Shown one piece after another: positions 1,769 through 58,899 of a DNA stretch of 64,000 bases. Below the pieces are notes generated by a model. That model was not told the origin of the DNA. It made no database searches and saw nothing but the letters and a program-made list of their open reading frames with translations. Positions within the stretch are counted from its first letter, which is position 1, and every line of letters begins with the position of its first letter. The position numbers and the translations under genes were made by a program. This DNA comes from Blasia pusilla. Its lineage: Eukaryota. The stretch covers positions 23,684,001 through 23,748,000 of the forward strand of contig CM114271.1 of NCBI GenBank assembly GCA_050084515.1, in the 5' to 3' direction.

Positions 1769-2864
1769 CGGGCCTCTAGCTCACCATGTGCACGCCCTAC
1801 ATGGGCCTAGCTACAGACCACAAAACCATTGTGGGCTCTAGGGAGGGGCTTGGATGCGGGCCATAGGTACCCGAGCAACATGTCAGTCCAATGGACGGAC
1901 TTGTCCGCTTCCGTGCAACCTTGCATGACATAGTTGGTAAGTACTTAGAGTTCTATCATGTCAATGGTGTAGGGAGTAAACATGATGATTGGCTAAAATT
2001 TTATCTTGATTGGTCGGATTAGGTTGGTTACAACTCATTTGCATTGGGATCAACATTTTTAACTAAAGCCCCCTCGTTTTCAATTTCAGGTCAATTGACC
2101 TAGTCAATGGTAATCCACTAACATGTGTGCATATATTATCGAGTGTCATTGTCTCCTTGGCTTAGTGTAGGGAAATATTTCAAAGGTTAATATGAAATAG
2201 ACTTCATATGTGAAACGTGGAGAAAATGCTTACGGATAGTTTTGAAAAGCATGAAAAAATATAATGCGGATTAGGTTATTAATTTCAGATATGTAATTTT
2301 TTTAAATATTAAGTGGAACTATAAATTATTTCTATGAGAATTATTTAATTTTAGAGTCTAATATGAGAGGAAGTAATAGAAATAGATAAGATAGATTTGA
2401 AAATTCCAATGAAAAACTATTTGAAATTTAAGATATTAATGTTAGAAATCATTCACATTAATTGCTTGATTAGTCAACATGACATTTTTAAGACTTGGAA
2501 ATTCAAAACCTTTGATATGCTTAAAAGATCAAATTTGAATCATAATTTTTTTTGTCTTCAAATCATTAGTATTTAGTGGATGGATGTGCCCATCATGAAA
2601 TACTTGCAAAAATTCTTGCAAAAATTCCATATTCTAATTTTTAAAGTCTAGTAAGTGTAATTATGTTTAGAGATCTTTGCCCCAATAGTAAATTGAGATA
2701 TAATTTGCAATACTCATCAATTTTTGGGATTCTTAGCTCATTTTACAATTATGTCCTTGTTATGCTGCTTGTGCACATATACACCATCGTCATTATCCAT
2801 CTAACTTACAAATTTGGAAAGAACACTTAACCATTGAAACTAGAGAGATACTAGTGATCATATA

Positions 2865-3868
2865 TGTCGTGCACCTACTCCCCTCAAACGTCAATCTTAG
2901 AGTTGCGGAAGCGTACATTTAGTAGGACATGCTCTCATCGCCAACCTGCACCCAAAAACACTCACATAGTCTGGTTCGGGTCAAGTGGCCTTCCAACCCA
3001 TCGAGTCTTTGTCTCGACATCTCATCAAGCTCAACCTTCCCTCATTCCTAGGCTCCCAGCACGGGAAAATCTTCCGAGACTTGGGACAAACTTTCTGGTT
3101 AGTCCACACACCTAAAACGGCGTTTGCTCACCTAATAGTCCCAACTGTCCAATGGACCTCGCTCGAGCCCCCAATCGAGACCCGAAAATATGAGTCACGA
3201 GTTGGAATCCAATGAGGACCTCCGAAATCCACTCTATTGGACTTGGTTCGGGTTTTGAATCCCAACACCAAAACGCCCGATCCATTCCGTGCCCTTGAGT
3301 CGTTCCGCGGCGCCCAAAGTGGGGTTCGAGTCCCAAGCATCTTTGGAGACCTTCCCCCTTACTAGTACTTATGGGGATTCCTTGCCTCCCCCTACCTTTG
3401 GGGAAGGGCACACGGACCCCTCTTTTTGGCCCTCAACCCGGCTCCCCGTACAATTGGTTTTGGTCCATATCTCAGCCTTTGTCTGAGCATTTGCAAAGAT
3501 ATGTAGTGCGTTGGAACCAGTTGCGCAAAAGAATTCTAACGCTACCTTACTTGTCCCAAACACATCTTAGGACTAAAATTTATGGTCAAAATTACAGGCA
3601 AAAACTCCAAACGCTAGCCGTGTCCCAAGTCCGATTCTCACCCCTTGGCCACGTCTCCTCCAAAACTCGACTTCTCTTAAGTCTGGGTTCGGCATTTGGT
3701 TTCGGTTTCCTTACTCACGACATAAACGCATGAAACACTTGAAACGCTCGCCTCGCTTGTGTCTCGCACTTGTGTTTCCCTAACTCCAAAGCGCAAACCA
3801 TCCTAGCGTGAGCCTGCTAGAGTTCGGATGTTCCGCTTAGCGCTCGTTTGGTTATGAGGATCGCGACA
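2865..3868 (-). mobile_element. Solo LTR (about 1.0 kb), same family as 10121-11123 in the opposite orientation
   Basis: Starts tgtcgtg, ends cgcgaca; perfect 5-bp TSD ATATA (2860-2864 / 3869-3873); reverse-complement homology to 10121-11123; no coding capacity. Strand is only relative to the other copy. Confidence 0.85.
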
Positions 3869-4472: not shown

Positions 4473-4953
4473 TGTCACATCTGAGTAGCTGATAGGCCGA
4501 GATCTATCGTGGATAGGGCGTAGGAGCCAACGGACTATCTTGAGTGTAACTTTGTCCCACGATGTCGGATGAGGTTGAGGATAGGTCCAATGTGTCAGGA
4601 ATGTTGTTTCTCCTAACTTTCATGTCGAGGTCTTTTACAACCGGGTGACTTGTTGACCAGGTCACCCGCCCCTGGTAACCTGGGCGCGCAGGTTACCAAG
4701 GGGAAGGTTATTTTTAGGGGAAGAGCCTTTTGGCTCTTCCCAACCCTATATAAGAGAGGAAGGTGGCTTTCCTAAGCCATCTTTCTCATGTTGGGCCGTT
4801 GGAGCACCTCCCTTGTATGTGTGTGAGATAGGACTAGGGTGCTAGCGTCTGGATTCCTTGATAGCACAGGGTGGACGAGGCTCAATATGTTGATGTAGAT
4901 TGAGGAGTGGAGTTTTAGGCCGGGTGTGCCGTTTTTACTACTCTTTATTTTTA
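4473..4953 (+). repeat. E1 5' terminal repeat B1 (contains TATA box and predicted TSS)
   Basis: Direct repeat of 28801-29281; starts tgtcacat; tatataa at 4747-4753. Confidence 0.9.
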
Positions 4954-4965
4954 CATGAGAAAGAT
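4953..4965 (+). promoter_or_regulatory. Self-priming primer-binding site of E1
   Basis: acatgagaaagat is the exact reverse complement of atctttctcatgt (4779-4791), about 30 nt downstream of the TATA box; no tRNA-type TGG PBS. Confidence 0.75.
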
Positions 4966-6690
4966 ATCATGGGGCTGGTGGGAATTCGTTGTTTGCAGGT
5001 AGGCAAGCGAGTTGCCTTGGTCGGGAGCCCTTAGAGACGCGTGTGTGGCATTTGTTTATCATTTTTTGGTCAGAGGGTTTTTGCGGAAGCGCTGTCATTT
5101 TTTCACATATCTTGTTGGTGCTGATTGACGAAGGATAGTAGTAGAGCATTAGCAAAGGTTGGGCAAGAACGATCGGGTGTAACGCAGAATGACGCTGCGT
5201 TGAGAGCATGGCGCGGTCGAAAAACGGGAAGGGAAGTTTTTGTGAGACACCATAGCCGCCGTGAGGGCGGCCATGCTAGGTTGTAGCCGCACAAGCCTAG
5301 GTTAGGTCACAATGAATTAGGTCGGGGTAGATTTGTGAAGAGCCGCCGAGAAGAAAGTGTGAGTCGAAGGCCATAAGGGCCAAACAAGACCGCAAGGCAA
5401 AGGCAGGAGCCATGTGGAGTGATTATGACTCCGAGATGGTAGGATAGGTACACGAACCTCATATGTACGTGTACCCAATGGTACACATAAGGATGTGCGG
5501 CCGAGAGTAAGAGGCCTAGGAGGTACAGCCGTACGTGGTTGGGGGTTGTACTAAGTAGGTGGCCGCATCAAGCAGTAAGGAGTCGACGGAGGGGCCAGTA
5601 GGAAGGCTGCACCATAGGGACGCGGGCTCATAGGGAGCCGTGCAGGTGGCATGGCTAAGACCGGGGACGGGAGGAGGAGTGTAATGGCCGCATAGGGGGC
5701 CGCGGAGGTCCAAGACATGAGGAGTTCATGTCAGAGCCATTAAGGCTCCAAGGAGGAAGGAGTCAAGGAGGAGTACCAAGGGACTTGAGGGCAGGAACGA
5801 GAGTGCATAGGGCGCCATGCAGGTACGAGGGCCGAGTTGAGAGGGTCCGTGGATTGGGGTCTCATTGAAACCAAGGCCGGAGGTGTTGCTGGATCGGACG
5901 GAGTAAAGTGGTTACACGGTAGGGCCACGAGAACGTGGTTGCCAGGGCAGATGTGATCAGGCGCAGACGAGGTTGGGGAATGGGCAACGTGGTAGAGGTA
6001 GGGCGTACGTGGTAGGAGTGGAACCCGACCAGGGTGAGTCAGGTTACATGCTGCGTGTGGGAATGGACGGAGAGGTTTGCGCAACATGATGTTTTTGGGC
6101 GCGACAGGGCGTTGCGAGAGTTGACGATGGAGGGGCAGTGCGCATGATGCCGACAGGTTGTCCGCATCTGTTGACGGGAGGATCGACGTATTGGTCGAGG
6201 AGAGTGTTGTGTTGCGGAGGTTGTCATATCACGTGGAGGAGTGCATGTTGACGATGTAGCAGGTTGGAGGACGTGATCAGGTTACCCATTCGAGTCCCTT
6301 TTCCCGCACTTGTCGTGTGTGATTGAGAGTGCTAGGTATCGGGTAGTAGATGGTGCTAGGTGGGTGTAGTGATGGTGACGAGTGTAGATTCTGTTCATGT
6401 GTAGCATGTTGGTGGATATACGGCGGTTTCCGAGTAGGGGTCGCGTGTATGACCCGAGAGAGTGTCGCTAGGTTAGGTGAGTCAGTTGGGAGGCTCATGG
6501 TGAGCTCGAGTGTTGAGTGTGCGTGAGGCCGGGTATGTCATCACGGGATTGATGTTAGCATAGGTGAGCTAGTGAGGAGTGTGGGAGACTCTTGGTGAGT
6601 CTGAGTGCTTGAGCGGGTGAGACAGGGTTTATTATCACAGCGTTCTTCCAGGGTTCGGAAGAACGGGGTAGTGCGTGCAGTAGTAGTGGT

Positions 6691-10120: not shown

Positions 10121-11123
10121 TGTCGCGACCCTCATGACCAAACAAGTGCCAAGCGGAACATCGGAACATTAGCGGGCTCACGCTAAGATGATTTGCGCGT
10201 TGGAGTTGTCTCAAAGAGGAGACAAGATACGAGACGCGAACGTGGAGTCGCGTTTCAGGTGTTATGGTCGCGACTGAGAAACCTGGACCAAACGCGGAAT
10301 GAGACTTGAAAGAAGTCGAGTCTAGGAAGTGGGTTGCCAAAAGGAAGATCCGGATTAGGAACGCCACTAGCGCTTGAGAGTTTCCAACTGTATTTATGGC
10401 CATAACTTTTAGCGCCAAGATGCGTTTGGAGCAAATAAGGGTGCGTTGGAAAGCTTATGGAGAGCCGGTCCAAATGCACGAAAGATCGCTGCAAACGCAT
10501 AAGCAGTGGCCGAGAAACGACCCAAAAACGACTGTAAGTGGAGTCGGGTTGAGGGCCACAATGAAGGGCCCGACCCTCTTTTCCCAAAGGGGAGGGGTTA
10601 TTGGAGAACCCCAGAAGTACTAGTAAGGGGGAAGGTCTCCGAGAGTGCTTGGAACCCAAACCCCACTTTGGGCGCCGCGGGGCGGCTCAAGGGCATGAAA
10701 CGGAACACGAGTTTGGGCGTTGGGTTGGAAAACCTGCACCAAGTCCATTGAGGCGATTTTAGACATCCCTCTTGGATTTCACGCCGCGACTCAATTACTT
10801 GGGTCTCGGTTCAGAACTCACACGAGGACCGTTGAACAGTTGGGATCGCTAGGCGTGCAAGTGCCGTTTCAGATCCCTGGACTAACGAGGAAGTCTGTTC
10901 CAAGTCTTGAAGGACTTGCCATGTTTTGGAAGCTAAGAACTAAGGAAGGTTGAGCTTGATGAGACGCCGAGTCGAGGACTCGGTGGGTTGGAACGCCGGT
11001 TGGCCCAGAGCCGACTAACGAGAGTGCGTGTTTGGGTGCAGATCGGCGATGAGTTCGTGACCTACTGAACGCACGCTTCCGCAACACTAAAGATTGACGT
11101 TCAACGAGAGTAGGGGCGCGACA
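10121..11123 (+). mobile_element. Solo LTR (about 1.0 kb) inserted in E1
   Basis: tgtcgcg...cgcgaca termini; 5-bp TSD tcaac/tcgac; removing it restores DLNCLTWI as in E2/E3. Confidence 0.87.
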
Positions 11124-11409
11124 TCGACTGTCTCACATGGATAGTCAAGGTATGGCTGAGCAGAGACGGATGCGAGTGTCATCCATGCCATCAAGTCCAC
11201 GATTTGGACCATTGCCTACAGGGTCTGTACAAGCATTGGTTGGGGGCGAGACGAGGAGAGATAGGCACCCATGGAATTTCTGGGACGTCGTTCAAGCACA
11301 GAGTACGAAGGCGGCTAGAGTAGCACATGTTCATTTTTTGGATGCGGAGCATGGTGTAGGAAGTCAGAGTGGAGTGGCTGTTGCGGAGGTGCCTAGGGTT
11401 GCTACATAG

Positions 11410-12014: not shown

Positions 12015-13865
12015 TATCATGACCATACGGATTATGTCGTAGAGTATAGTGCTGGTAGAGGCCATTCCTTATGTAGGACCGTAGTGGCTTGGTAGAGATG
12101 CGGTTCCATACATAGGGTTGGGGGTGACTTTCCCAGTAGGGCCCGCTCTTAGGTTGGAGGATATAAGGTGGCTTGCCCTCAAAGAACAGTCAGTTCTTTG
12201 AGTTGAGCCTGTTGCGTTGGGAGTTAGCATTGGTAGTGAGTAGAGCTCTTGGCTATGGTGTTTCCCGCAAGCTTCGACCTAGATTATCCCATCGTGGAGT
12301 GGGTTTGGCTCGATTGTATGTGATTGTAAACGTGTTTTATGACAGTAGGTCTTTCACGGATTTCACTCAAAGAACTGACGTAGATCGATGGTAGCTTCGA
12401 TTGTAGATCAGTAGGATCTGGTTAGGGTTGATTGTGTACTCAGCCGTAGATGTTCGCGGCTTGTTGCCTATGTTGGAGGTGTGAATCAGGTGCGTGGTTG
12501 GTTTGGAAAGAAGCGCCTTTGCTGAGAGCTTTCCAACGCTACCTGTAGATCGCCGGATTTCGCGTCAAGGAGTTGGAAGTTATCAAGCATTGAAGATTCT
12601 GGTTCGTGTTCGGCGTTTTTTGATATGGAGAGGTTGGAGTCGGAAGCTCTGTTGAAGTTCATCCAGATCGGGTGAGACGTTCCTATTGCTACTTGTATTG
12701 TGATCTCATGTGAAGCTATCTGCTCGAGTGCGTGGAGCGTTATGGATTTCTGCGTGCATGAAACTTGGCGGAAGCGCTGCCGGATTTTGCGGTTCTAGAG
12801 GTGTATGGACAAGACAAGTTTATCTGATTTTTAGCTCGGAGTACGGAGCTCGGTTGTAGTTGAGTTTTTGTGGGGAGATAGCTATGGTGGTCAATTGAAT
12901 TCTGATCGAAACATATTTGATTTCGGTCACGTATTTGTGAAGTAATTTCTGATCGAAATTTCACGGACTAGCTCAAGGTCTGGCTATGGTGGACAACGGA
13001 TCGGAGGGGCTGGTTGGTTGGTGACTCGTTCATTGTTGGAGACGCCTATCCCATTGGGGGCGCCCTGGTTGGACCTCTCTCCATAGCGAAGCATGGCGAA
13101 GCGTGGCGAATGGGGCATGTCTCGGCGTTTTGAGGCTTCGAGGCAACTCGTGGTAGCTCGGGGCGAGTGGGCGTGAGAGGCAGAGTAAGGAGCAGGGAGC
13201 AAGCAAGCAAGCTTGCTTGCTTGGGCGTGAGGCAATTTTTGCAGGATTTAGGATTTGAGTTTTGCATAACTGGCCACCCATCTTTGGGCTATTCTGCCTG
13301 GAGGACGCTTAACTGCTGAGTTCTTAACTATGCCAGTGTACAGACTGTTGTAGCTCATTTGGTGCTGTTCGGAGAGGTGTTAGGCACTTTATGCATCTCA
13401 GGTTTTTGGTTGATGTACCTCTAGCGCATAGTACGGTGTAGCCTCTCCATGCAGATGATATTTTCAGGTGCTGCGAGTTCGACTAGCACGTCATCGACCC
13501 GCGGCGGAGTAGCTATTGCGTTAGAATTGTGTGGTGGGTTTTGTGGATTCAGAGGGCACCACATTTGGTGGATTGTGTTACCTTGGTTTCCATTTGCGAT
13601 TGGAGGGTTGTCGTTGGATTTCCTGTGTTTGGATCCCCTCCATTGTGCTTCTTGCTTGCGCGCCCATTGTTAGGGTTGACGCTGATTTCCATAGTAGTGT
13701 TACTCTGTGTGCTCCGATAGTGAGGTGGAGTGATGACCATGAGACCGTGGGAGTCTTCTTGTGGTGATGAGAGGTTAGGTTGCCTACACCCATAGCTAGT
13801 AGAGCTACAATAGTAGAGCGACATCGACGTCACTTGGTTAATTTGGTGGTGGTGCGGCATCGGCG

Positions 13866-16800
13866 TTGGTCATCACGGAGCTGTCGGGTGGTCTGGTTGG
13901 GGACCGTGGTGCGGACAGTGGTGGTTTCACACGGAGTGGATTTAGGTATCGGCTACCTTTTCCACTTCCGACGGTTGATGAAGAGGAGGACGAGGGTGTT
14001 CCAAACACCGAGTCTTCTACGTTGTTATCGAGTGTTGCAGCTCCATTGATTTGTGACATGGACGGTGGATATGGGGCCATGAAGGGCCCACGACGATACT
14101 TGGGTGCAGTGGGTACCATTGAGTTGGAGGACTTCATGCAGGAATTTGATACGTGGTGTGATATGCAGATGTTGCAGAACGCCACGTTGTTTACACCCTT
14201 CTTGGCTTGGAAGGGGTTGTTTCAGCACTTGGAAGGACCACCCATGGATGATTACCATGAGTTTAGGAAGGACCATGTTGCTGAGATTGAGGCATGGAGA
14301 CAATATTGGTCTCCAGGCTATGTGTCTATCATCCATGGTGGTATTGGTAGTAGTGCTCCTACTATGCCCCCCGGAACCGAGTGGTATGCAGTACTGAGCC
14401 GGAGTGGGGATACCTAAAGTGGAGGTACTAGTGGGGGTACTAGTGGAGGTACTAGTGCCCCACCATTTAGCTTGATTGCTGCAGAGGTTCTTCAAGAGGT
14501 TGAAGAAGAACTATCAAGGAGTGAAGACGGAGAAGTTGAGGAATCTTTAGGACTTTGAGCGAAAGGCGGTGAGAGTCTTCATGAGGCATACACGCGTATC
14601 GACGCTTGATTTCATTACCAAGGGTGTGCGAGGTTCAGCGATCCAATCAATTTTGGTATGGGATCTTGGACAGAGATTTGCGCCGTAGGGTACGTGATGC
14701 TACTCTTATGAGTGATGATTCACCCACATTGACCCATGTGTTTGCTCTATCTCGAGAAGATTGAGCTTAACATGGTGAAGGAGAGAGTGGTGACATCCGC
14801 ATTCGAGTAGGGATACAACTACTACTCGTGTTCGCCGCCCACCTCACGCCTCATAGTAGTGGTGTTGGTATTAGTAGTGGGAGTCGTGGGGGTACACGCG
14901 ACCTCAGTCAAGTCCTAGAGGGACATTTGTGTAGAGACCATTGCCTTCATTTTTGCTGCCCCCAGCAAGAAGGACGATCATGTTGGACATGTGGAGGTGA
15001 TCATGTTAGGAAGTTTTGTCCCCAAGAGGATGGGAGACGGACTTTGGAGGATGGGCCTCACTCGGCCCCAACTCAGGTGTGATCATTGCGGGAGACTAGG
15101 TCATCCTCGAGAGCGTTGCTTTGATCTTCATCCGAGTTGAGATCAGGCCGTGGCCGTGGTGGAGTAGCCGAGAGGCCGAGGTGGTAGAGGTGGTAGGGGT
15201 GGTAGAGGTGGACCGGTGGTTGGAGAGCCTACGGTGGCTACCCCTACCACTACGACGAGTCGCTATGGTGCCAGGATTGAGCAATTGGAGCAGAAGTTGG
15301 CTACTATGGTGGTATCCAAGATAGATCAGGTTCGGGAGCAGGGCTTCCACCTCTTATGGAGGGGATGATCTCTCTTATATGGCGAGTAAAGACAAGGTTG
15401 AGGCATCAGCAGCGATTTGAGAGGAGCCACTCGGCGTCGAGCCACGTGGTGCTATCAGGAGTTGGACCCACAGAGGGGTGAGGTTGGGAGCGTGCTAGGC
15501 TTCCCAGTCATTCTTGTTGTCCGAGGTGCTTAGGACTCCATCCATGGTTCCTCGCAGCCTATTGAGCCGACAGTGGGGATCGAGGCATCTATCATCGCGT
15601 GTAGTAGACACGGATGCAAAGATCCAATGCAAGATGTGCGGATGGCAACTTCAGTGTTGGGATCCCCATTGTTTTCGCCACGGAGCGATGGCTTTAGGAG
15701 TTGACTTAGCTCTTGTATTTTCAGCCAGACCACATTGTGTGAACGTGGGGTGTTATTCTTGCTACATGTGTTGAGGTGGATGAGGATGTTGCGGTGGAGT
15801 GACCCTCTATGTCGGAGTAGCATTGAGTACCAGTGCTACTTAAGCAAAGGCGGGCGGAGATGGATGCATTACCGGCCCGGCCAGCCATTGATCGTGAGAG
15901 GCTTACACTGGTGTATGTATGTTGGACAACCGGAGTGGGATCTTCCGATTTGTGAGTCCTACAGACAGGTGTATAGACCAGATAGAGTCTTGTTAGACTT
16001 AGGTGCCCAGCCTTTGATGTTGGGAAAGGCGGCATGTATTGGTTTGGGTATTCGGAGGTCGAGCTTGAGCCTTGCCCATTCCAGATTCAAACATCACTTG
16101 GAGGAGCCAATGATAGGTCTCAATTCATGACACGGGAGAAGTTTTTCAGAGTTGAGACCAGATCATGCGACCGATAGCTCCCGGTTGGGATTATCTCGGT
16201 AGTCACATCACCGAGTCGTATGATGTACTAGTTGGAGGAGGAGTATTGTACCCGATGGGTTTTCAGATGGATTCTTGGATCGAGAGGCGTCTTATAGACC
16301 AGGTTGGCGATCCGGGATGGACGTATGAGCCAAGTTCTGTGAGATTTATTTCGGGGCTCGACCAGAGGGTCTTCCCAACAAAGTGTTAGCATCCGTGGTG
16401 GTTTTAGTGGAGTAGTCACTTGGCCAGAGACTTTTTGAGGGTAATGTTTCGCTATGGATTCTCCGCGCATGAGGAGGTAGAGGAGGTCCCTATTTTTGCA
16501 GCAAATGGCATCCTCATCGTTGGATGTGCCACTTTGGAGTTCAGAGGCGGTGCACTACGGCAGAGGCCGTCGCCTAGTGCAAGAGGCTTGGTGTGAGGTC
16601 AGTTATACCTCACGAGGAAGAGGAGGCCCCACGGTGGACTCCTACTGCCTGATTAGGTTATCCCTTTGGATACTACACCCATTGTATGGCAAGATCCACG
16701 GAGGGCATTTGTGTGTTAGATCTCTTTGGTGGGATTAGCACTGGTTTGGCGGCAAGATGTTGCAGGCCGGTATTCTGTCGGCGGAGATACGTGTATGTGG

Positions 16801-17902
16801 AGCGAGATGAGACGGCCCAGAGAGTCTCATCTCGACATATTGGTCGATTGATGCGAGATATCCCGAGTTGTTGCCGCCATCGGCTATTCGTGGGTACCAG
16901 CGTGTTTTTACCATCACACATTGCATTGTTGGGGCGCAGGACCTTGAGAGGGTTGGTCCTGTGGATTTGGTGATTCTTTGGATGGCCATGTCGGGTCATC
17001 ACACGTCTTTGGTCGTGGTGAGGGATTACATGACCCTAGGTCTCGATTGTTTTGGGAGATGTTACGGGTGTTACGACATCTTCAGTTCATCGAGCACGTG
17101 CTCTAGCTTACATTCTCGAGAATGTTCCATTGTTGGGTGACACTCGGACCCGGATGATGGCGAGTGTTCATGAGGTGCGGTCTTGATTGGACCAGCGGTG
17201 TTGTTGGATGCTGCATGAGTTGGCTCACAGCGGCACATCATCCACGCTTGTGGTGGACAAACTTGTTGCCTAGGAGGTTCTACGTCGAGCATTTGATGCA
17301 AAGGCAGGGATCCTCGCTTACAATGGATAGTATCTTGATATCTTTGGCGACTTTCTCAAGTGGTGAGGGTTATTGATCGGTCACCCATGGCAGTGGTGAA
17401 CCGTGTGGGCCAGCCTAGGATGGCACTACCCATATTTGTGAGTTTTCCCGCGTCACATGCCTACAGGGAAGGTGGTCCGGGGCTTGTATGGGATTCTCAT
17501 GTGCGACAGTTGGTGGAGCCTAACGCTGATGAGAGAGAGCGTGCGATGGGATTTACTACTGGCGTGACAGCGGTTGCTTCTATTTCTGAGGCTTCACAAC
17601 GTCATGTGTTGGGTCAGGCCATGGACCTGAATTGTTTGACTTGGATTTTGAGTCTTGGTATGGCCGAGCAGCGTCGACTTCGGACTATGTCTGTGGGTCT
17701 TCCACCCCTTGTAATGAGCTCGATGGCTACCGGGACGGTAGAGGCATCGGCTAGGGGCAAGGAGAGTAGTATTTTGCATCCTTGGAGTAAATGGGATGTA
17801 ATGGTTGGGCATGTGGAGTTGGTTGCTCATGCTGGTGGAGGAGTTATTTGCTCAGATGATGGTGTAGCTAAGGGTGTATCATCTTGTGAAGGGGTTGCGT
17901 AG
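13866..17902 (+). pseudogene. E2 Gag-protease-DNMT ORF (frameshifted)
   Basis: Gag GTIELEDFMQEFDTWCD; knuckles CWTCGGDHVRKFC and CDHCGRLGHPRERC; PR VLLDLGAQP; DNMT about 16705-17650 (VLDLFGGISTG, GWPC, ENV, ERERAMGF, LGQAMDL); ends at TAG 17900-17902. Confidence 0.82.
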
Positions 17903-20900
17903 CAGCCAATGGCATCGTCCTCTCCCTCTAGTATGCCAGTGGAGGAGACTTGGGAGCCATTACTTGGGCCCAAGCTTACGGGAGGTGAGAAACGTCGCTT
18001 GACACAGTTCCTACGTGCTTATAGGAGTTGTTTTGCCTTTAGCATGAAGGAGTTGGGTTCTCTGGTTGGACCCGGTATATGGATTGATTTGGCTAGTGAT
18101 ACGCCAATCTTCCGTCGTCCCTACCGATATAGTGATATGGAGAGGGACTTGATTGAGTAGGACGTTGGACCTTTTGGAGGCTAGATTAGTGGAGTTGTTG
18201 CATGGAGAGTATGCATCGCCCACTGTCATGCTGCTAAAAAGGATATGCATGGCAACTACACGGATAGGCGGATGTGTGGAGATTACCGCCCTATCAATCG
18301 GCAAACCAAGGCCGATAGGTATGCCATGCCTACACGAGAGATCTTTGATGTGGTGGGACAGCAAAGATTTTCAGTATTTTGATCTTCGGGCAAGATACCA
18401 TCAATTGCCGATTCGGGAGAGTGACAAGGCCAAGACAACATTTTGGGGTGTCAACTCTCATGGCAAGGATTGTTTGTACCGGTGGAAATTCTTACCCTTT
18501 GGGTTGAAGAATGCACTGTCGAGTTTCAAAGAGTGATGGACGGGATCCTAGCGGTGGTTGGATTTTGTTCGGTGTTACATTGATGATATCTTGGTGTTCA
18601 AGAACACGGTGGAGGTGCATCGATACATTTGCAGATGGTGTTTGAGCGGTTGAAAGCTCATGGTCTACGTTTTCATCCAGGAAAGTGTAAGTTCTTCCAT
18701 GAGGATGTTGAGTACTTGGGTCATGTGATCTATCCAGGTGGTTTGGGAGTTCGACAAGCAAAGGTGGAGGCTATTGCACTTATTCGCGTCCGGTAGATGT
18801 GAGTAGAGTTCGAGCATTCATGGGATTGGCGAACTACTATCGGAGGTATGTGAAGGATTTAGTGCTATGGCAAAGCCTTTAAACCAATTGCTGAAATCAG
18901 ATCAAGAGTGGCACTGGGAGATGATCGGGAGAGAGCTTTGGGGAGCTTAAGGCCAGTTGGTGGCGGCGCCTATCTTGAGGAGACCTATCGAGGGCGCCCA
19001 TTTGATTACATACACACGATTGGAGTAGGTTGGGACTTGGAGCGGTGTTGACACAACATGATGATGAGCACATGGAGTTTGTGGTGGCCTATGCAAGTCG
19101 TTCGAATAATGCAAATGAGTCGCGCTATAGTTCATATGAGGGAGAGTGCTTGGCAAGAGTGTGGGATGTGGCACACTTTAGGTGTTACTTGTTTGGCACA
19201 CTGATTTACCCTTGTTATCGATCACCACCGCTCAAGTGGTTGATGGAGTCGGACAAGCTTACAGGAAGCTTGCAAGGTGGGCTCTTATCTTACATGAGTA
19301 TGACTTCGGGTGGTACATAGACCTGGAGTTGCCAACCTTGATGCTTTGATGGGTTGAGTAGGAACCCATGTACTAGCCAAGAGGATACAACTGGGGCTAG
19401 ATGGCATGGCGAGGTTGATGAGGAGATGGTGCCAGGTTGGCATGCATCCGCCTTTTTATGTTGGTTAGGGGTGGACTCTAGTATGGAGGACCACATGATA
19501 TCTTACTCTAGTCAGAGGGTAGATGGCCAACCTTCAGATCCTAAGGTTGGAGATGGTGGTACGGATGAGCGTGATATTCATGATGATGCGTTGGTGTTGG
19601 AGTTCCTACGGACCAAGAGGGTGCCGCATAGTGAGTGCCAAGGAGCGAGACCGTGTTCTTCAACGTGCTAAGAGGTATCGATTGGAGGAACACATATTCT
19701 CCGCATGTGGGAGGATGGTAGAGTACGAGTAGTGCCACATTTGGCTCGAGAGAGAGCGCATTGACAGCGACATGCCCATGAGGAGTTGGGACATTTTGGG
19801 GTAAAGCGACGTATAGCTTACTCCTTGGCAAGATTGGTGGCGTGGCATGCATACTCAGTGCAGCGAGTTGGTGTCACGTTGTATGGTTTGTGACCGGGTG
19901 AGGGCATCATTTAATGCCCCTACACCACAATTACATCCCTTGCCTATTATGGGGTTGGTTACCGTTGGAGTGTGGACTTTGCGGGACCGTTACCATTGAT
20001 GCGACATCATCGATATGTGTTGGTGATGGTGGAGCACTTCTCCAAGTGGATTGAGTTGGTGGCATTACCGGACAAGGCAAGTGAGGGAACGGCATATGCG
20101 TTTCTGGATAGAGTGCTTAGTCATTTTGGTGCACCGGTGAAGTCTTGACCACCAGTGCAGTCTGAGTTTGGTGGTGAGTTTGGTCTTGTGTGACAAGGCG
20201 TTGATTGATCATCGGACCACGTCTCGAGATCATCCGAGGCGGATGGTTTGGCTGAGCGTGTGGTTCGGGACGGTGAAGAGGGCATTGCGCAAGTATGGCC
20301 TCTGAAGGGGCATCTTGAGACCAGGATATTCGTTGCCATGGTTAGCCATGGGGTATAGGTTCAGTCGCCAAGCATCCTTGGCTTCCTTCTCACCTTATTT
20401 TCTATTATACGGCCGAGATCCGGACTTGCCGCAGCAATTGCCGGGAGTCTAGTGAGGTGGTGGACCTTGATGACCCAAAGATATGGATGAGGGTGTGTTC
20501 TCGGGCGGAGCTCTTTCGGAGAGTTATGCCAATGACCTTTGAGAATCTTGCCATTGCTCAACACAGGATACGCGGTATGGTTCGGGGTGGAGGTTATCGA
20601 CCATCGATTCGAGGTTCCATGTGGGGACTATGTCTATTTGCAGCAGATTGCCCGACAACGTTGGATGTGGCAGCAGCGCACTATTTTACGAAAGTGCGTG
20701 AGGTGTTAGCTTCGGAGTTCTCATGTTGGAGGGTCGTGATGGAGTTGTTTGGAAGGACCATGTGCGTAATTGTGCGCCATGTCATCTTCCAAATGTGGAT
20801 GGTATCTTATTGACCCAAGCTTAGCCATGATACGTGCTAGCTTGAGGTGCATGTTGTGTGGGTCTGCCGGGTAACGCCGTATGTTGGTGTGTGATCGATG

Positions 20901-20984
20901 TTCTAGGGGTTGGCATATGATGTGTTTGACTCACGTTTGGATGTTGTTCCTCTTTGGAAGGTGGGTTTGTCTCGATGTACTTAG
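17903..20984 (+). pseudogene. E2 RT-RNaseH-integrase-PHD (frameshifted)
   Basis: YIDD at about 18577; RNase H GLGAVL and YSSYEGECLA; integrase HAHEELGH and WSVDFAGP; C-terminal PHD. Confidence 0.85.
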
Positions 20985-21740
20985 GAGAGGTAGATGACTT
21001 GATCTTTGCATGATATGGATTACAGATGTGCGACTAACGATGGGGCAACCTAGCACCCGGCCTTCGATTCGGGCACCCAAGAAGGTGTATAGCATGTAGT
21101 AGATGTATAGGGCTACCGGGAGTTAGAGGAACCTAACCGCCTTGATTAGGGGCGAGTTGTGGTACACTTGCGTTTGTGGATACTCGTCTATATTATGTAT
21201 GTATGTGAGTATGGTATGTCGGCGATGTATGTTGTATGACGATGGGGATTCATGACGACAATTTGTCATGACCATACGGATTATGTCGAGAGTATAGTCT
21301 TTGGTAGAGGCCATTCCTTATGTAGGACCGTAGTGGCTTGGTAGAGATGCGGTTCCATACATAGGGTTGGGGGTTACTCACTTGGGGGTGACTTTCCCAA
21401 GAGGGGCCCGCTCTTAGGTTGGAGGATATAAGGTGGCTTGCCCTCAAAGAGAATCAGTTCTTTGAGTTGAGCCTCTATGCGTTGGGAGTTAGCCTTGGTA
21501 GTGAGTAGAGCTCTTGGCTATGGTGTTTCCCGCAAGCTTCGACCTAGATTCTCCCATCGTGGAGTGGGTTTGGCTCGATTGTATGTGATTGTAAACGTGT
21601 TTTATGACAGTAGGTCTTTCACGGATTTCAGTTGTGGTACACTTGCGTTTGTGGATACTCTCATCTATGTTATGTATGTATGTGAGTATGGTATGTCAGC
21701 GATGTATGTTGTATGACGATGGGGATTCTCACGACATACC

Positions 21741-22374: not shown

Positions 22375-25300
22375 TGTTGATCAATTCAGGACTCTAGACT
22401 GACCTTTAATTGCAGAAGAAATAGCAAGCAAGGCGATAGAACATCATGCATTTGTAAGGAATGTGATCTGCAGCAAAGAGCGGATCATAGTTGCTCTTTA
22501 AATACACAGGGCTCTCTATGTTGTCCTACCTACAACAGAAAACGTGTCCTAACATAAGAAAATGCAATTCACGTGCATGAGTGCTGAGTCACTTACAAGT
22601 GACACCTGTTCACTGACACATAAGAGGTGAGTCATAAGAATGACCTTCTTGTCCTATTATATATGCGGAGGTGGCTAGGCATGGTGTCAATAGAGGAAGG
22701 TCGCTGGTAATCAGCTACATGCTAATATCTAACACTCCCACTCAGTGACTAGCTCCATTGATAGTATCTCTATGAAACACGTGTTTCTCCCTAGTTAAAC
22801 CTTTTGTGAGAATATCTGCGACCATGTCATGGATGTCACAATCTACTACTTGTATCAAACCCTTTTGTACCATCTCCTTAATAAAATGATACTGAATGTC
22901 AATGTGTTTTGTCCTCTCACTAGATCTTGTTCTATCTAACAAAGCAATAGCACTCTAGTTATCACAATATATTACAGTCCTCCCTTGCTGATTCCCAATC
23001 TCACTTAAAAAAATTTGTAACCAAGTTGCCTTTGTGAGAGCTCTAGTTAGAGCCATGTACTATGCCTCAGTAGTGGATAGAGCAACAGATTTCTGCTTCT
23101 TGCTTCCCTAGCAGACAATTGCGTGTCCTAACAAGAAATAGAAACCAGAGGTTGATGTTCGATCATCCTGATTACCTCCCCAATCAGCATCAGAGTAACC
23201 ATACAATGGTTATATGCTGTTTTTCCTACTGTACACAAGTACTAAGTTTGCTGTCCCTTTTAGATATCTAAAAATCCTTTTCACAGCACCCCAATGGCCT
23301 GGACTTGGTTCAGCCATATATCTAGAAATCATACTCACAGCAAAAGAAATGTCAGGCCTTATACAAACCATTGCCCACGTTAGACTACCTGCTGCACTTT
23401 TATAAGGTATCTTTCTCATGAAGCTTCTTTCTTCTTCATTCCTCGGGGAATCCTTTCTTGATAGCTTCTTCCTTGATTCTACTCGTGTATCTACATGTTT
23501 GCAGTCTGACATTTTAAACTTTGCAAGTACATTGTTGACATACCTACTTTGAGATAGTCTAATCCACCCTTCCTTTCTGTTCCTAGTTACTTCCATTTGA
23601 AGGAAATGATGGATTTCTCCCATATCTGTCATTCTAAACTCCTTTTTCATTGAGTCTTTGACAGATATTAGCAGTGGTGTACATTTACTAATCAATACGG
23701 CGTCATCTACGTATAGGGCCAATTGTACAAAATATTCATGATCATTCAGGATGTAAACATTTGTATCATTATCACATCTCCGAAATCCTATTTTGATCAC
23801 AAAACTATCCATCATTTGATACCACATTCTTGATGACTGTTTAAGTCCATAAATGGACTTGTGCAGCCTACAAACTTGATCTTGGCAAGTAGGATCTGAC
23901 ACCCCCTCTTGCATCTCCATATATACTTCCTTCTCAAGTATACCATTCAGAAATGTTGTCTTTACATCCATCTGATGTACTTCAAGATCAAACTGTGCTG
24001 CCAGAGCAAGCATAACTCGGATTGAAGTTCTTTTGACTACATGTGAGAATGTCTCAGTGTAGTCCACACCATAAACTTGTGAGTAGCCTTTTGCTACCAA
24101 TCTTGCTTTGTACCTTTCAATGCTCCCATCTGCCTTGTACTTTATTTTGAAAACCCATTTACATCCCACAGCCTTTCTACCTAGTGGAAGTGAAGTGAAT
24201 GACCAAGTTTTATTCAACCTCATGGATTCGAGCTCTTGTTCCATTGCATCCTTCCAATGAACTGCTTGTTGCCCAGAGAGAGCTTCTTCATAGGTCTCGG
24301 GTTCTTCAATATTGTTATGCTTCTCTTGTTGACTCATTAACACCTGAGTCAACTTCTCTTTATCTGGATTCCTTGCGCGTGATTGCTAATGTGCTGCATC
24401 ATATTTCTCCACTTGCCTTGAAACCCTTTCAGAGCTTCTTGGTCCAGTGCTCGCTTCTGTTGGAGTTGTGTTGTTGGACTCTATTTGAACAATCTGTGGC
24501 TCCTTCTGAACTTGTTCTGGTGCAACATCAAGAAAATGGCTCTCTGTTGGAATCTCACTAGCACTCTTACTAGTACTTGGAGTGCTCATACTTGGTGTTA
24601 GTACACTTTTTCCTTTCAGTGGTAGTCGATGCTGGAGTTGGTAAGTCTCCCACTAAACTCGTTCCCCAGGACTCCGGGAACTCAAACAAGGAATCGTCCT
24701 CCTCTTTACGTAAACCAACAAATGCCATTTTGCCCTCTTGGAATTTTACATCCCTAGAAGTGGTGATGGTTTTGTCAAATTTCTTTTGCAACGTGTATCC
24801 TTTTCTTTGCTCATCATAACCAAGAAGAATACATTCTTCTGATTTTACATCTAGTTTTCTCCTTTGAGAAGAAGGAATTAGTGCAAAAGCTGTACACCCC
24901 AAAATTCTAATGTGACCAAGATCTGGAGGCTCTCTGTACCAAACCTCATATGGTGTCTTATCACCCTCCAGAGCCTTTGTTGGTGATCTGTTCTGCAAGT
25001 AGTTTGCTGTCACTATTACTTCACCCCACTAAGCCTTTTCGAGACCTGATTGTTCTAGCATTGCAAGTACAACAGATGTTAATGTTCTATTTTTTCTTTC
25101 TGCTACTCCGTTTTGCTGTGGAGTGTGAGGGACTGGAAACTGCCTTCTAATCCCATGCTCTTGACAGTGTAAATTGAAATCAATGGAAGTGTATTCTCCC
25201 CCATTATCACATCTTAACATTCTGATTTTTCTTCCTGTCTGATTTTCTACCAAGTTTTTGTACACTAAAAACTTCTGATACACTTCTGATTTCTGCTTTA

Positions 25301-27479
25301 GAAGATATATATATGTATATCTTGACAAATCATCTATAAAAGTCAAGAAATATCTAGCTCCATTGAATGTACATGTACTCATTGGTCCACAAACATCAGA
25401 ATGAATTAAGCCAAGAATATCTTCAGCTCTCTTACCACCATTAGTTGGAAATTTCTCCCTTACTTGCTTGGACTTGATGCATGTGGTACAAAGAGGAAAG
25501 TTGTCAAAGTTTACGCCCTTCACCAAATTTTGTTTTTGAAGTGCTATGAGTCTCGCTTGGCTGATGTGGCCAAGCCTCTCATGTCACAAAACAACAATAG
25601 TTGTTGCAGAGAGAGCAGTGGTCTCCTTGCAAGTGGAATCTCTGGTTGATTGCTCAGGTGTTATGGACTCACCTAGCATATACAACTTGTTCTTCGACCT
25701 GCACTTTGCTATTGGTACCCCAACTTTGTTGTTCAGGGTACAACGACGATTCTTGATTGTGACCTGTCCTCTTGCTTGATCAAATTGATCCACTGAGAAT
25801 AGATTCTTCTTCAGACCAGGGACATACAACACATCTGGGATGACAGCTTGTACTCCATCCACTAGGCTGATGCTTATTGACCCTGTTCCTTGAATTGGCT
25901 GGGTTGTGTCATCTCCCAAATACACCACGTGTTGCTGATCTGTATTACAAGCTCGGAAAGTGGTGAATGTGTTGAGGTCGTGAGCCATGTGTTGAGTGGC
26001 TCCAGTGTCCACATACCAAGCTGTATCTGGACTATTTGAGGCAGTCAGAGCTGTTACATAAAGTTCAGTTCCAACATTATTACTCTGATGTAGCTTCTGC
26101 AATCTCTTAGGACAATTCTTCAATATGTGTCCTAATTGCTTACAATAGAAACAGCGAATTGATGTGATCGGAAGCTTCTTCATGTAGCTTCCTCTTCCTT
26201 GATTGAATCTTTGATTACCACCTATATAGAGTGTTGTTGATGACTCAACAATCCCATCCATATTCTTCATATGAGTTTCTTCTTGCAACAATTGAGGAAT
26301 GAGAGTTGTCATGGTCAAATTGGGCTGGACCCGAATAGAAATAAAAAACTTCAGTAACTTTGAGGCATGCTTCAGATCGGATCTAAAACCTTCTCTTCTT
26401 CATCGAGGACGGCCCCAGCAGGTTGTCGGTGATCGAGAATGGATGTCAAGCGATGAATGTGTTTTAGTACACTTTCATCCCTCTCATCTTGATTGTTGAC
26501 AACTAATCTTTTAGATACATTTGTGTTACCTGGTCCTTTTGCTCGAAAAGATCGGTCATTCTTTTCCAAGCATCATCAAATGTCGAGCGACCACTCGAGA
26601 GAGAATTGATTGTTCTCTAGCGAGTTTGCAATGATAGAGGAGACAAGACTATCTTTCTTGATCCATAGAGTCGCTGCAGAGGTTCTAGGGGTTTCCTTTC
26701 GCTCCCTATGCCATCTCCATAAGTGCTTGATCTGAGAACCAATATCATTCTCTATTTCAGACTTGAAAATAAGTTCCATCAAACTTAGGAATATCTCAAG
26801 CTCTAAGATGAGCCATTACTAGTTGACAAGATTCACCTGGTTTTCCTCTCAATTTCTACGCCCTCAATTGGAGTAAGATTTCAAGCACATGAAAGCACAC
26901 CCACTTTGGGTGCTCGCTTGATATCTCTTGCCGACCTGCTTGTCCTTCTATAGAAACACAATGCTTCTTGGACACTTTTCTAAGACAGAATCGATCGGCA
27001 CTCTTCTCATGATCGGTCACGGGTCCTCTATGGACTCATCATCAGAGATATTCTTAAACCTTACTCCTAAGTTCTACCACATACCACCCAGTATGTACGG
27101 AGGATCCTTACTCCTATCCTGCCTATGGCTCTGATACCATGTTGATTAATTCAGGACTCTAGACTGACCTTTAATTGCAGAAGAAATAGCAAGCAAGGCA
27201 ATAGAACAAGACGCATCTGTAAGGAATGTGATCTACAACAAAGAGCAGATCATAGCTGCTCTTTAAATACACAGAGCCCTCTATGTTGCCCTACCTACAA
27301 CAGAAAACGTGTCCTAACAGAAGAGTGCTGAGTCACTAACAAGTGACACTGCTCACTTTGACACATAAGAGGTGAGTCATAAGAATGACCTGCCTGTCCT
27401 ATTATATCTACGGAGGTGGCTAGGCATGGTGTCAATAGAGGAAGGTCGCTCGTAATCAGCTACATGTTGATATCTAACA
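22375..27479 (-). mobile_element. Ty1/Copia LTR retrotransposon inserted in the RNase H of E1
   Basis: LTRs 27140-27479 (5') and 22375-22734 (3'), TG..CA. tRNA-iMet PBS tggtatcagagc (complement at 27128-27139); PPT next to 22735; TSD caaag/cgaag; gag-PR-IN-RT-RH order. Confidence 0.95.
22742..26318 (-). pseudogene. Copia gag-pol polyprotein (disrupted)
   Basis: Knuckle CFYCKQLGHILKNC; PR WYVDTGAT; IN IHSDVCGP, LRCDNGGEY, PQQNGVAERKNR; RT KARLVAKGYSQ, QMDVKT, LYVDD; RH RTKHIDIQYH, ADILTK; in-frame stops. Confidence 0.92.
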
Positions 27480-27484
27480 CGAAG

Positions 27485-28584: not shown

Positions 28585-28661
28585 GGTAATAGGTCATGTC
28601 AGAGAGATGTGATATTTTCTATCTGGAGTTGGGGGGATCCAACTGCCAGCTAGGGGGGCGG

Positions 28662-29418
28662 TTGTGTGATCTCCATGTATATGTATGAGTTGATTTTTGT
28701 ACATGTGTAGATCGACCCATGTGTGGGGAAGATCGGTGTTCTGTGGTGTAGATGTGACCAACGATGTATGTTGTGTAGCGATATGTATGCGCACGAGAAC
28801 TATCACATCTGAGTAGCCGATAGGCCGAGATCTATCGTGGATAGGGCGTAGGAGCCAACGGACTATCTTGAGTGTAACTTTGTCCCACGGTGTTGGATGA
28901 GGTTGAGGATAGGTCCAATGTGTCAGGAACGTTGTTTCTGCTAACTTTCATGTTGAGGTCTTTTACAACCGGGTGACTTGTTGACCACGTCACCCGCCCC
29001 TGGTAACCTGTGCGTGCAAGTTACCAACGGGAGGGCTATTTTTAGGGGAAGATCCTTTTGGCTCTTCCCAACCCTATTTAAGAGAGGAAGGTGGCTTTCC
29101 TAGGCCATCTTTCTCATGTTAGGCCGTTGGAGCACCTCCCTTGTATGTGTGTGAGATAGGACTAGGGTGCTAGCGTCCGGATTCTTTGATAGCACAGGTT
29201 GGACGAGGCTCGATATGTCGATGTAGATTGAGGAGTGGAGTTTTAGGCCGGGTGTGCCATTTTTACTACTCTTTATTTTTATTGTGTGATCTCCATGTAT
29301 ATGTATGAGTTGATTTTTGTACATATGTGGATCGACCCATGTGTGGGGAAGATCGATGTTGTGTGGTGTAGATGTGACCAGCGATGTATGTTGTGTAGCA
29401 ATATGTATGCGCACGACA
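28662..29418 (+). repeat. E1 3' terminal repeat block A1-B2-A2
   Basis: A (137 bp) at 28662-28798 and 29282-29418 flanks B2 28801-29281, which repeats 4473-4953. Confidence 0.9.
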
Positions 29419-41400: not shown

Positions 41401-43365
41401 CCTCCTGGCAACGCTTTTGACTGCTATGGCAAACCCGACAAGCCCATCATTCCAACCTGAGTTGAACTGGCACTGTCCTGCACTTGTGGCCCTAATTCTG
41501 GGTAGATGCATACAAATGGCGGTGTGTGGATTTTGACTTTGCTAGAGCAGCGCTACCACAATGTCTATCCACCATCGACCAGAGCCATCACTTCCCTCAG
41601 CGGTTGAGATGAGGCTCTCTATGATCTATCTCGTTGCGAGGACAAAAGTGGATTCCGTTTCCTATCGAAACAACTAATGTGCACCTACATTCCTTGTCCA
41701 GTGTGAGGGTCGTAGTCAGTTTAGGAGGAGTTAGTCGCCTGCTTAACCGCATTCAGCTGCTACAAAACCTGTCCAGGATCAACGAAATCTCACACTAAGC
41801 TGCTGAGGTCCTACACATGTTCTTGGTCTTTGCTGAGGTAAGAGAGCGCGGTGCGTTGTGTGCAGGCACAGATCGATCCACATGTTGGTCGTGCGACAAT
41901 TACAGCACTCAAGAAACGATGTGATCGACTGCGTCTGACAATTGATGGTCTGTCAGTGGTTCGAGAAAAGTTGATCCAAGAACTTGAGAGTCGGGTGGCA
42001 AACCGCAAAACAATTGATACAAAAATAAAGGTTACTGCTGGATACGTGCAACTAGATCGGTCACTGAAAGTTTAGCCATAGTTAAGAGCGGACGAGAGGG
42101 TAGTTATCATTCCGGCTCGCCTCTCATCTGTGATTGCGACAGCTTTTTCTTCTATGCTCGGTTCCCACTGATTAGTCACATCTCACCTTTCCTTGACTAC
42201 TGTTGCCGAAGTGCTCAGTATCCATCTACTCTCGTACCCCTTCCGAAACCTCCGTTCTCCACATCTCCAGTGCTGATCCACCATTTGCACTTCTCTTCTT
42301 CCCAAATTGACCACGGATCAGTTCGATTCGGCACTTGCATCGAGCGTTTCGCTTGGGCTGAATCATGTTATTTTCACTAGATACACGCATCTCGTGTGAG
42401 TACTTGTCCACATGGGACGGCTTCTATCGCGTGATTTGCAAGTATGTTGAACAGATCAGTACGTATGTAAGGTGTTTCTCTGCTTGTTCTTAGTCTACAT
42501 TAACGAAAGGGATTGTCAGATTTTGCTGATCTGCCGGTTAACGTAATCGCAGGCAATGAGCCAAAGGAAAGGGGTGGATGGACCCGCCAGTCTCGAAGCC
42601 AACCTTTTGAAAGGCTGCAAAGAACTTAAGAGAGCCACCACAGAGACAGACAAAACCAGCATCCGCATCGACGGCCAACTCGAAGCGTACGAAGTAAAAA
42701 GAAAGCAATTAGCTTCCGAAGTGGACCGTCTCACCGATGTCATTCAATCAATAGTGAAGGAGCAGGAAGTTTTGAGGTTTTCGTATCATCAAAACTTAAT
42801 GCCATGAGAACGCAGAGTGGGACGTATCTTAATTAACGTGTGCAACTAGATTGGTCACTGAAAGTTTAGCCATAGTTAAGAGCGGACTAGAGGCTAGTTA
42901 TCATTCCAGCTCGTCTCTCATCTGTGATTGCGACAGCATTTTCTTCTATGCTCGGTTCCCACTGATTAGTCACATTACACCTTTGGCACAGGCCAAGATG
43001 AATTGAGCTAAGATCTGACCTTTCGTCACATTACCGAATACGAAAGTTACTATTACACCTTCACGTTTGGGGGCATGTGCAGGAACCAATTGAGAGACAC
43101 AAACTATCACAGATCGTTGCAGCTCATGGCCACAGCCTTGCAACAGCGCTTGTGTAAGAGGTACGAAGAAGTGAGGGCAGACAGGTGGACAGTGAAGTTG
43201 AAGACCACGTTAGAAAATGAACTGACTGAGTCGCAACGAAAGTGCAACGATTTGGTTGGGGTAGTGAGGTTGATGATGGAACGACTTCCAGAGGTGGTAC
43301 CGAAATTAGATATGATGGAAGCACAGTTGTCATTTGTTATCAAAAAATCAACTTTCACGTACTAA
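35485..43365 (+). CDS. CCDC40: Coiled-coil domain-containing protein 40 (axonemal ruler component, FAP172-like), multi-exon
   Basis: GT-AG exons 35485-35808, 36077-36389, 36811-36956, 37985-38278, 39915-40606, 41127-41364, 41866-42030, 42553-42776 and 43083-43365 join in frame. Motifs HPALERAQIAL, REEAGVVLYGMQ, IAVNRRATYAAEE and KKEQDL match my recollection of CCDC40. The start may lie in an upstream exon (AG just before the ATG). Confidence 0.78.
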
Positions 43366-43809
43366 ATAAGACTCCGATAAAAGAAGTGTCCCAGACGTGG
43401 AGTTCACTTGACAAAAACTACTACTGTGGATGGTTTCCAAAGAGGAGCCTATCTCACATTTATGAAGGGAGTGTAGGATTACGTGAGAGGTACGAAGAGT
43501 GAGGGCAGACAGATGGACAGTGAAGTTGAAAACCACGTTAGAAAATAAACTGACAGAGTCGCAACGAAAGTTCAGCGATTTAGTTGTAGTGATGTTGATG
43601 ATGGCACGACTTCCAGAGGTGGTCCCGAAATTAGATATGATGGAAGCACAGTTGTCCTTTGTTAGAAAAAAATCAACTTTCACGTACTAAATAAGACTCC
43701 ACTAAAAGAAGTGAGACCCAGACGTGGAGATCACTTGACAAAAACTACTGCTGTGGATGGTTTTCATAGAGGAGCCTATCTTACATTTATGAAGGGAGTG
43801 TAGGATTAC
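43154..43809 (+). repeat. Tandem duplication (about 328 bp x2) of the CCDC40 last-exon 3' part plus 3' UTR
   Basis: 43154-43482 is repeated at 43483-43809; ORF 43499-43690 repeats RADRWTVKLK..STFTY. Confidence 0.9.
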
Positions 43810-58728: not shown

Positions 58729-58899
58729 GAGAGGTAGATGACTTGATCTTTGCATGATATGGATTACAGATGTGCGACTAACGATGGGGCAACCTAGCAC
58801 CCGGCCTTCTGATTCGAGCACCCAAGAAGGTGTATAGCATGTAGTAGATGTATAGGGCTACCTGGGAGTTAGAGGACCTAACCGCCGATTAGGGGGCGA

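Follow-up and report, generated by a model that had tools for sequence, protein, structure and literature searches.

The closest described systems to the elements considered here are the long terminal repeat (LTR) retrotransposons Tf1 and Tf2 of Schizosaccharomyces pombe and Tj1 of S. japonicus, which use no tRNA and whose primer binding site (PBS), immediately behind the 5' LTR, complements the opening bases of their own mRNA. For Tf1, two reports describe how the first 11 mRNA bases pair with the PBS and how RNase H then cleaves after base 11, ahead of base 12 (PMC7175516, PMC4600332). We analyzed a window of 64,000 nt from the liverwort Blasia pusilla (GCA_050084515.1, contig CM114271.1, positions 23,684,001 to 23,748,000 of the forward strand), which is eukaryotic repeat DNA containing LTR retrotransposons nested in one another. 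Three Gypsy elements on the plus strand, E1 (4473-29418), E2 (12015-21736, inside E1) and E3 (49690-59478), are accompanied by the 3' end of a fourth, E0 (995-1768), whose 5' end lies outside the window. E1, E2 and E3 each carry, directly after the 5' repeat, a sequence complementary to a site in their own LTR where the transcript is predicted to start, and we consider it probable that minus-strand DNA synthesis in these elements starts by self-priming of the Tf1 type. Set against Tf1, Tf2 and Tj1, the liverwort duplex is 12-15 bp long and known here from sequence alone, the integrase ends in a PHD finger and not a chromodomain, relatives carry a DNA methyltransferase (DNMT) in pol, and the element ends follow the order A...B-A-B, A and B being the segments of a split repeat, in place of two plain LTRs.

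Within plants, Neumann et al. 2019 (PMC6317226) predict self-priming for chromoviruses of the Tcn1 clade, in mosses and club-mosses, and for Copia elements of the TAR lineage, at 12% of the surveyed elements, so that the self-priming mechanism itself is not new. The Blasia elements resemble Tcn1 and TAR elements in being plant LTR retrotransposons lacking a tRNA-type PBS and predicted to self-prime, but they belong to a lineage that has split repeats and no chromodomain; neither Marchantia nor PHD occurs in PMC6317226. The sole liverwort match in our literature search, PMC2864245, concerns Tcn1 elements, and the main texts searched yielded no statement on self-priming for the Gypsy-DNMT3/PHD lineage or for liverworts.

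The repeat arrangement has two precedents. KnitGypsy-Dnmt3 from Klebsormidium has repeats 'the same as that of a DIRS retrotransposon' according to a figure legend of de Mendoza et al. 2018 (PMC5890265), in the main text of which 'primer binding' has no occurrence; the arrangement is therefore already in print, while its link to the PBS, the polypurine tract (PPT) and the target site duplications (TSDs) was not found in that main text. The liverwort elements share with KnitGypsy-Dnmt3 the order A - body - B-A-B and the set of DNMT, reverse transcriptase (RT), RNase H and integrase (the DNMT in relatives, among which are Klebsormidium proteins), but the window copies are decayed and their DNMT remnant has no Pfam match. 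The other precedent lies in PAT-like DIRS elements, Ngaro and Viper, described as having split direct repeats A1-B1-A2-B2 (PMC4157794). The repeat order A1, body, B1-A2-B2 is common to these and to the liverwort elements, but the former encode a tyrosine recombinase, whereas the relatives of the latter encode a DDE integrase (rve, PF00665) and 4-bp TSDs are found here. TOC1 of Chlamydomonas reportedly also has split direct repeats A1-B1-A2-B2.

Complementarity at the 5' repeat boundary

The original prediction had named three pairs of complementary segments in the window, and all three proved exact. In E2 the bases at 12365-12379 are the reverse complement of 12189-12203 (15/15), in E3 those at 50056-50067 of 49883-49894 (12/12), and in E1 those at 4953-4965 of 4779-4791 (13/13). 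In each case the complementary stretch takes in one base of the 5' repeat, its last, so that the PBS proper begins with the next base, at 12366 (E2), 50057 (E3) and 4954 (E1). The putative self-primer binding site of E2, CTCAAAGAACTGAC at 12366-12379, thus stands directly after A1, where it is predicted to form a stem with the 5' end; its counterparts, likewise complementary to their LTR sites, are CTCAAAGAACT at 50057-50067 in E3 and CATGAGAAAGAT at 4954-4965 in E1. The partner site in the LTR, here called site S, comprises the predicted first transcript bases GTCAGTTCTTTGAGT in E2 (12189-12203), AGTTCTTTGAGT in E3 (49883-49894) and ATCTTTCTCATGT in E1 (4779-4791), all on the plus strand.

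Site S had been said to lie about 30 nt downstream of the TATA box, and the distance holds. Measured from the first T of the TATA, the core of the site starts after 30 nt in E2, 31 nt in E3 (TATA at 49852) and 32 nt in E1 (TATA at 4747); the E2 box (TATAA, 12162-12166, plus strand) precedes the full site by 27 nt and the core AGTTCTTTGAGT, shared with E3, by 30 nt. The 3' repeat of E0 obeys the same spacing rule, with a TATA at 1435 and ATTCTCTCTTTG at 1466-1477, the predicted site S, 31 nt on. In E2-like loci and in a third family described below, the core again lies 30-32 nt past the TATA, as counted by eye on the printed sequence. The core begins with A in all families and is always preceded by C or T (a Y-A step). 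An A preceded by C or T resembles the plant initiator. From the TATA spacing and the Y-A step we infer that site S is the transcript start, and under the relation between site and PBS the 5' PBS of the E0 family would be expected to be CAAAGAGAGAAT-like. A blastn search with the E0 and E1 repeats against 80 related loci found no E0-family LTR and no family member that retains a 5' end.

As a control for chance, the 12-mer at every window position was tested for a reverse complement within the 480 nt upstream. Only 19 of 63,508 positions were positive, and 7 of these 19 are the E1, E2 and E3 sites, which shows that the complementarity is not a product of chance. Leaders running from the predicted transcript start to just beyond the PBS were also folded, each against 200 shuffles, as a prediction only. 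The minimum free energy stem closes the 5' end on the PBS in E2 (12189-12385, z -3.30, with 1 of 200 shuffles as good), and the same stem between 5' end and PBS is obtained in E1 (4779-4972, z -3.36, 0 of 200) and in a third leader (z -4.64, 0 of 200).

A further pairing is found within the LTR of the E2 family. The sequence CTCAAAGAAC at 12179-12188, at the end of U3, repeats the opening of the PBS exactly, and together with site S it makes a 10-bp hairpin across the predicted transcript start (12179-12203; in the 3' repeat of E3, 59185-59210). E0 has a similar PBS-like stretch upstream of the site (1441-1477), and none is present in E1 or in the third family.

The 80 related loci were obtained from metagenome contigs by a pattern scan using an alignment of the RT-RNase H region. 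Two groups among them are informative for the PBS. Group 1 is the E2/E3 family in C-to-T-decayed form (L002, L005, L006, L011, L012, L022 and L028, of which L011 and L012 are one locus in two samples). Group 2 is a third family (L027, L044, L045, L047, L056, L073 and L074), with an RT identity of about 47% and approximately 45-51% identity across the RT-RNase H query region. The 5' repeat of group 2 ends ...GCAATTCA, and the bases that follow, ATTCTAGAAAAACT(A), pair with AGTTTTTCTAGAAT, which begins 31-32 nt after GTATAAAAGG. The pairing is perfect over 15-16 nt in L045 and L047, and in L056 and L074 it spans 14 nt and includes a single mismatch.

The position of the pairing was examined in the 15 elements that retain a 5' repeat, three from the window and 12 from the loci, by locating the best 18-nt complement. 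In 12 of the 15 this complement has the same relative position, 121-182 nt before the end of the repeat. Eleven of these 12 have it 24-32 nt past a TATA motif, no TATA being recognised in the remaining one (L022). Reading by eye from the repeat end, one finds differences among the three PBS types, CATGAGAAAGAT, CTCAAAGAACT(GAC) and ATTCTAGAAAAACT, at 10 of the initial 12 positions, with every type finding its match in its own LTR. Three different pairs, each matched within itself, amount to covariation at the level of families and argue against a shared host primer. The original prediction that the E1 pair is wholly different and covaries is thereby borne out between E1 and E2/E3 and once more in the third family, which was sampled independently.

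No tRNA-type site was found at these boundaries. A TGG start is seen in none of the 17 PBS regions read, unlike in the Copia element nested in E1, which has TGGTATCAGAGCC, a PBS of TGG type, directly after its 5' LTR; this contrast too had been anticipated. We take TGGTATCAGAGCC to be the usual tRNA-type site, the identity of the tRNA being presumed. ARAGORN predicted no tRNA gene in either the window or the 862 kb of the 80 loci, and an Rfam search of the window gave no matches.

If self-priming operates, the transcript would begin about 31 nt past the TATA box, at the A of the pyrimidine-A step, and its first 12-15 bases would fold back onto the sequence directly after the 5' repeat. In Tf1 the RNase H of the RT then cuts past the paired bases; a similar cut here would free a short RNA primer, whose extension would copy U5 and R. 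Both the cutting of the duplex and the priming are inferred. The tRNA-independent self-priming of the original prediction is thus supported in silico by the position of the boundary, the TATA spacing, the covariation, the folds and the lack of a TGG site.

Several observations weigh against self-priming. Three of the 15 elements have no convincing pair, since the best match of L005 and of L006 lies elsewhere and that of L073 covers only 11/18; by eye, L002 and L028 are decayed or deleted at the site. The non-fitting L002, L005, L006, L028 and L073 are old, C-to-T-rich copies. In E2 the pairing extends 3 nt upstream of the Y-A step, so the start is not placeable to the base, and the transcript start itself is a prediction from sequence. 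An internal tRNA fragment or another host RNA may yet be the primer. Finally, the A...B-A-B ends imply non-canonical later steps of replication, and the role of the duplex could differ from that in Tf1.

Split repeats and element ends

All four window elements have the order A1, body, B1-A2-B2, with exactly two copies of B each (E0 and E1 to E3). By the criteria applied, split direct repeats were also identified in 18 of the 46 loci with at least 2.9 kb past the RT match, and in three shorter loci. Logan contigs of four runs, which are unable to show a transcript start or end, contain other copies of the family with the same B-A and A-B joints.

In E2, A1 (TATCATGACC...GGATTTCA, 12015-12365, its TG mutated to TA) is 92% identical to A2, the 3' repeat at 21264-21630. 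The purine tract AGGGGCGA (21148-21155), a putative PPT, stands directly before B1 (21156-21260), which ends ...CATGACGACA and is separated from A2 by 3 nt, ATT; B2 (21631-21736, ...CACGACA) is the right terminus, 93.5% identical to B1, and is followed by the TSD TACC (12011-14 and 21737-40). In E3, A1 (TGTCATGACC...GGATTTCA, 49690-50056) is 95.4% identical to A2 (59008-59372), and B1 (58900-59005), preceded by AGGGGGCGA at 58891-58899, is 98.1% identical to B2, the right terminus at 59373-59478; the TSD is ATAT (49686-89 and 59479-82). In E1, A1 (TGTCACATC...TTATTTTTA, 4473-4953) is 95.0% identical to A2 (28801-29281), and B1 (28662-28798), preceded by AGGGGGGCGG at 28652-28661, is 94.9% identical to B2 (...GCGCACGACA, 29282-29418), again the right terminus, with the TSD TAGT (4469-72 and 29419-22). 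The E0 end consists of B1 (995-1123), the dinucleotide GC, A2 (1126-1639) and B2 (1640-1768), with B1 and B2 97.7% identical. All these features are on the plus strand.

Identity between B1 and B2 is 93.5-98.1% within elements compared with 56-67% between families, from which it follows that B2 is kept identical to B1 within each lineage. The 4-bp TSDs of E1, E2 and E3 lie immediately before A1 and immediately after B2. A check of eight loci gave matches at 25 of 32 TSD positions (L011 and L056 perfect, five loci 3/4, L073 2/4). The TSD of L047 is perfect as well (CCAC). In this locus B2 is only 29 nt long (13007-13035), corresponding to the last part of B directly after A2, either because of a later deletion or because the A-B joint formed at another point.

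The repeat boundaries coincide with the putative signals for DNA synthesis. All four window elements, like 9 of 11 loci, have a G-rich purine tract that directly adjoins the first base of B1. A2 in turn runs exactly to the base preceding the PBS and is joined there to B2, and this stop marks the point before the PBS as a start of DNA synthesis. Because the purine tract lies before B1 and the PBS after A1, the A2-B2 joint is a fusion of U5 to U3. It has the form expected of a head-to-tail joint of ordinary LTR units of composition B-A, with the integrase using the internal B-A site. At that site the segments form an inverted pair, since A starts TGTCAYG and B ends CACGACA, and in B1-A2 there are 2-3 nt between the end of B1 (CA) and the start of A2 (TG).

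Although A and B otherwise defy alignment between families, the final 36-37 nt of B (GATGTATGTTGTRT...GCACGACA) are conserved across them. In the window these stretches are found at 1088-1123, 1733-1768, 21224-21260, 21701-21736, 28763-28798, 29383-29418, 58970-59005 and 59443-59478; GATGTATGTTGTRT occurs perfectly eight times, two per element, and a ninth time, with one mismatch, at 673. The conserved B end is likely the end bound by the integrase. UGUA-rich B was also considered, as a candidate far-upstream polyadenylation element.

Self-priming may be combined with circularly permuted integration, a reading that we put forward tentatively and hold to be somewhat less likely than its negation. 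Reverse transcription would define an LTR unit B-A, from purine tract to PBS, and the integrase would take as its ends an internal palindromic B-A site made of the B end ...CACGACA, 2-3 nt, and the A start TGTCAYG.... Every insertion would then have the form A - body - B-A-B with a 4-bp duplication, and the A2-B2 fusion would be remade in each cycle. Integrase cleavage of palindromic LTR-LTR junctions reportedly has a retroviral precedent. The combined reading would require a step unknown in integrase-bearing retrotransposons; candidates are a junction-bearing circle that opens at a single, specific copy of the site, and an extension of the right end on the B segment of the left end. A model in which a symmetric two-LTR circle opens randomly at the B-A palindrome was rejected as insufficient as stated, since it predicts the order A-B-A...B about equally often; none of the 80 loci shows this order, nor do the window elements, each with exactly two B copies.

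Alternative roles for the duplex

The alternative that survives best, which we nonetheless judge unlikely, is that the duplex serves the unusual replication producing the A...B-A-B ends and not minus-strand priming. The 3' end of the minus-strand DNA, which has the same complementarity, could fold back on the PBS copy and prime the plus strand, or the duplex could hold the ends together for formation of a circle or junction, as in the repeat-bridged replication proposed for DIRS/PAT-type elements. The split repeats, in 4/4 window elements and 18/46 loci, do indicate that replication departs from the textbook scheme, and a DIRS-like repeat arrangement was noted by de Mendoza et al. 2018 (PMC5890265). 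Yet in every family a strong purine tract abuts B1 and already supplies a plus-strand primer, and the fixed TATA spacing fits an RNA 5' end, whereas a DNA fold-back needs no such spacing.

Next comes, as an improbable reading, a structural panhandle in the leader, with a part in packaging, dimerisation or translation control, and with a host RNA, for instance an internal piece of a tRNA, priming at or near this place. Leaders of retroelements are highly structured. Half-tRNA primers without TGG are known in plant Copia lineages (PMC6317226). Against this, three unrelated PBS sequences would need three host primers, each of which would also have to match the start site of its own element, and the duplex begins at the exact base where the repeat ends. 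Nor is there a conserved TGG site downstream, the TGGTAGC at about +26 in E2 and E3 being missing from related loci.

Chance, or a by-product of local LTR palindromes, is effectively refuted: the E2-family site is also the 3' arm of an intra-LTR hairpin (CTCAAAGAAC), but the background is 3 in 10,000 positions, E1 and group 2 keep the PBS pairing without an internal hairpin, and the geometry recurs in 12 of 15 elements.

Lineage, genomic setting and implications

The elements are of Ty3/Gypsy type, as judged from RT, RNase H and DDE integrase and from an RT closest to Ty3. E3 contains RVT_1 and RT_RNaseH at 56144-56965 and, after an integrase remnant, an open reading frame (57871-58728) with a PHD finger (PF00628). 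Its RT-RNase H piece best matches a Marchantia polymorpha protein (83% identity), followed by Calypogeia, Klebsormidium and Closterium proteins, and the closest solved structure is that of Ty3 RT (4ol8, E 1.5e-37). Relatives carry DNMT (PF00145; in P0001, P0006, P0018, P0019 and P0046), RT, RNase H, rve integrase (PF00665) and PHD, and in P0018 the domain order is DNMT-RT-RH-IN-PHD (RH, RNase H; IN, integrase). From this domain set of the relatives the elements are assigned to the streptophyte Gypsy-DNMT3 lineage, which was described from Klebsormidium (PMC5890265). Upstream of the RT in E3, at 54449-55015 on the plus strand, is a motif-level remnant of a C5-DNA methyltransferase (ENV-type motif) without a Pfam match, at a place where relatives have PF00145.

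No chromodomain (PF00385) was found among the close matches P0001-P0059. A tyrosine recombinase domain was likewise absent from the window pieces and from the precomputed Pfam lists for the relatives, which do include the rve integrase. The original prediction had likened the elements to the Tf1/sushi group, and this comparison stands for the mechanism but fails for the chromodomain, which those elements carry where the liverwort elements have a PHD finger. The likeness is one of mechanism only and does not by itself imply membership in the Tf1/sushi group.

E2 and E3 are 92% identical across 9.9 kb. The element copies in the window are decayed, and only four open reading frames of at least 250 aa are present in total. 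Besides E2, E1 encloses the Copia element mentioned above, on the minus strand at 22375-27480 (LTRs 22375-22735 and 27140-27480; RVT_2 at 23210-24352). An inverted pair of approximately 1 kb, 74% identical (2864-3868 / 10121-11124), flanks the 5' part of E1. Elsewhere in the window there is a tandem repeat at 46666-47590 with a period of about 211 nt and several copies 68-86% alike, and two 329-nt copies lie head-to-tail at 43154-43809 (91.5% identical). A 389-aa open frame on the plus strand at 60761-61930 contains an AMP-binding enzyme domain (PF00501, E 8e-57) and probably represents a gene or exon of the host.

Self-priming is rare as a means of starting reverse transcription, and its known range would be widened to the DNMT- and PHD-bearing Gypsy elements of liverworts and charophytes. 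For annotation, the elements suggest a rule, namely a TATA, about 31 nt, and then a site mirroring the PBS, which may be useful where tRNA-based PBS finders fail. More unusual than the priming is its setting, an integrase element whose split repeats have their boundaries set by the PBS and PPT. With the replication boundaries of the split repeats fixed by the PBS and the purine tract, the way in which an integrase element makes permuted ends becomes testable, and the permuted A...B-A-B ends bear on how the remaining replication must run. If permuted integration is true of these elements, a DIRS-like repeat order could arise without a tyrosine recombinase.

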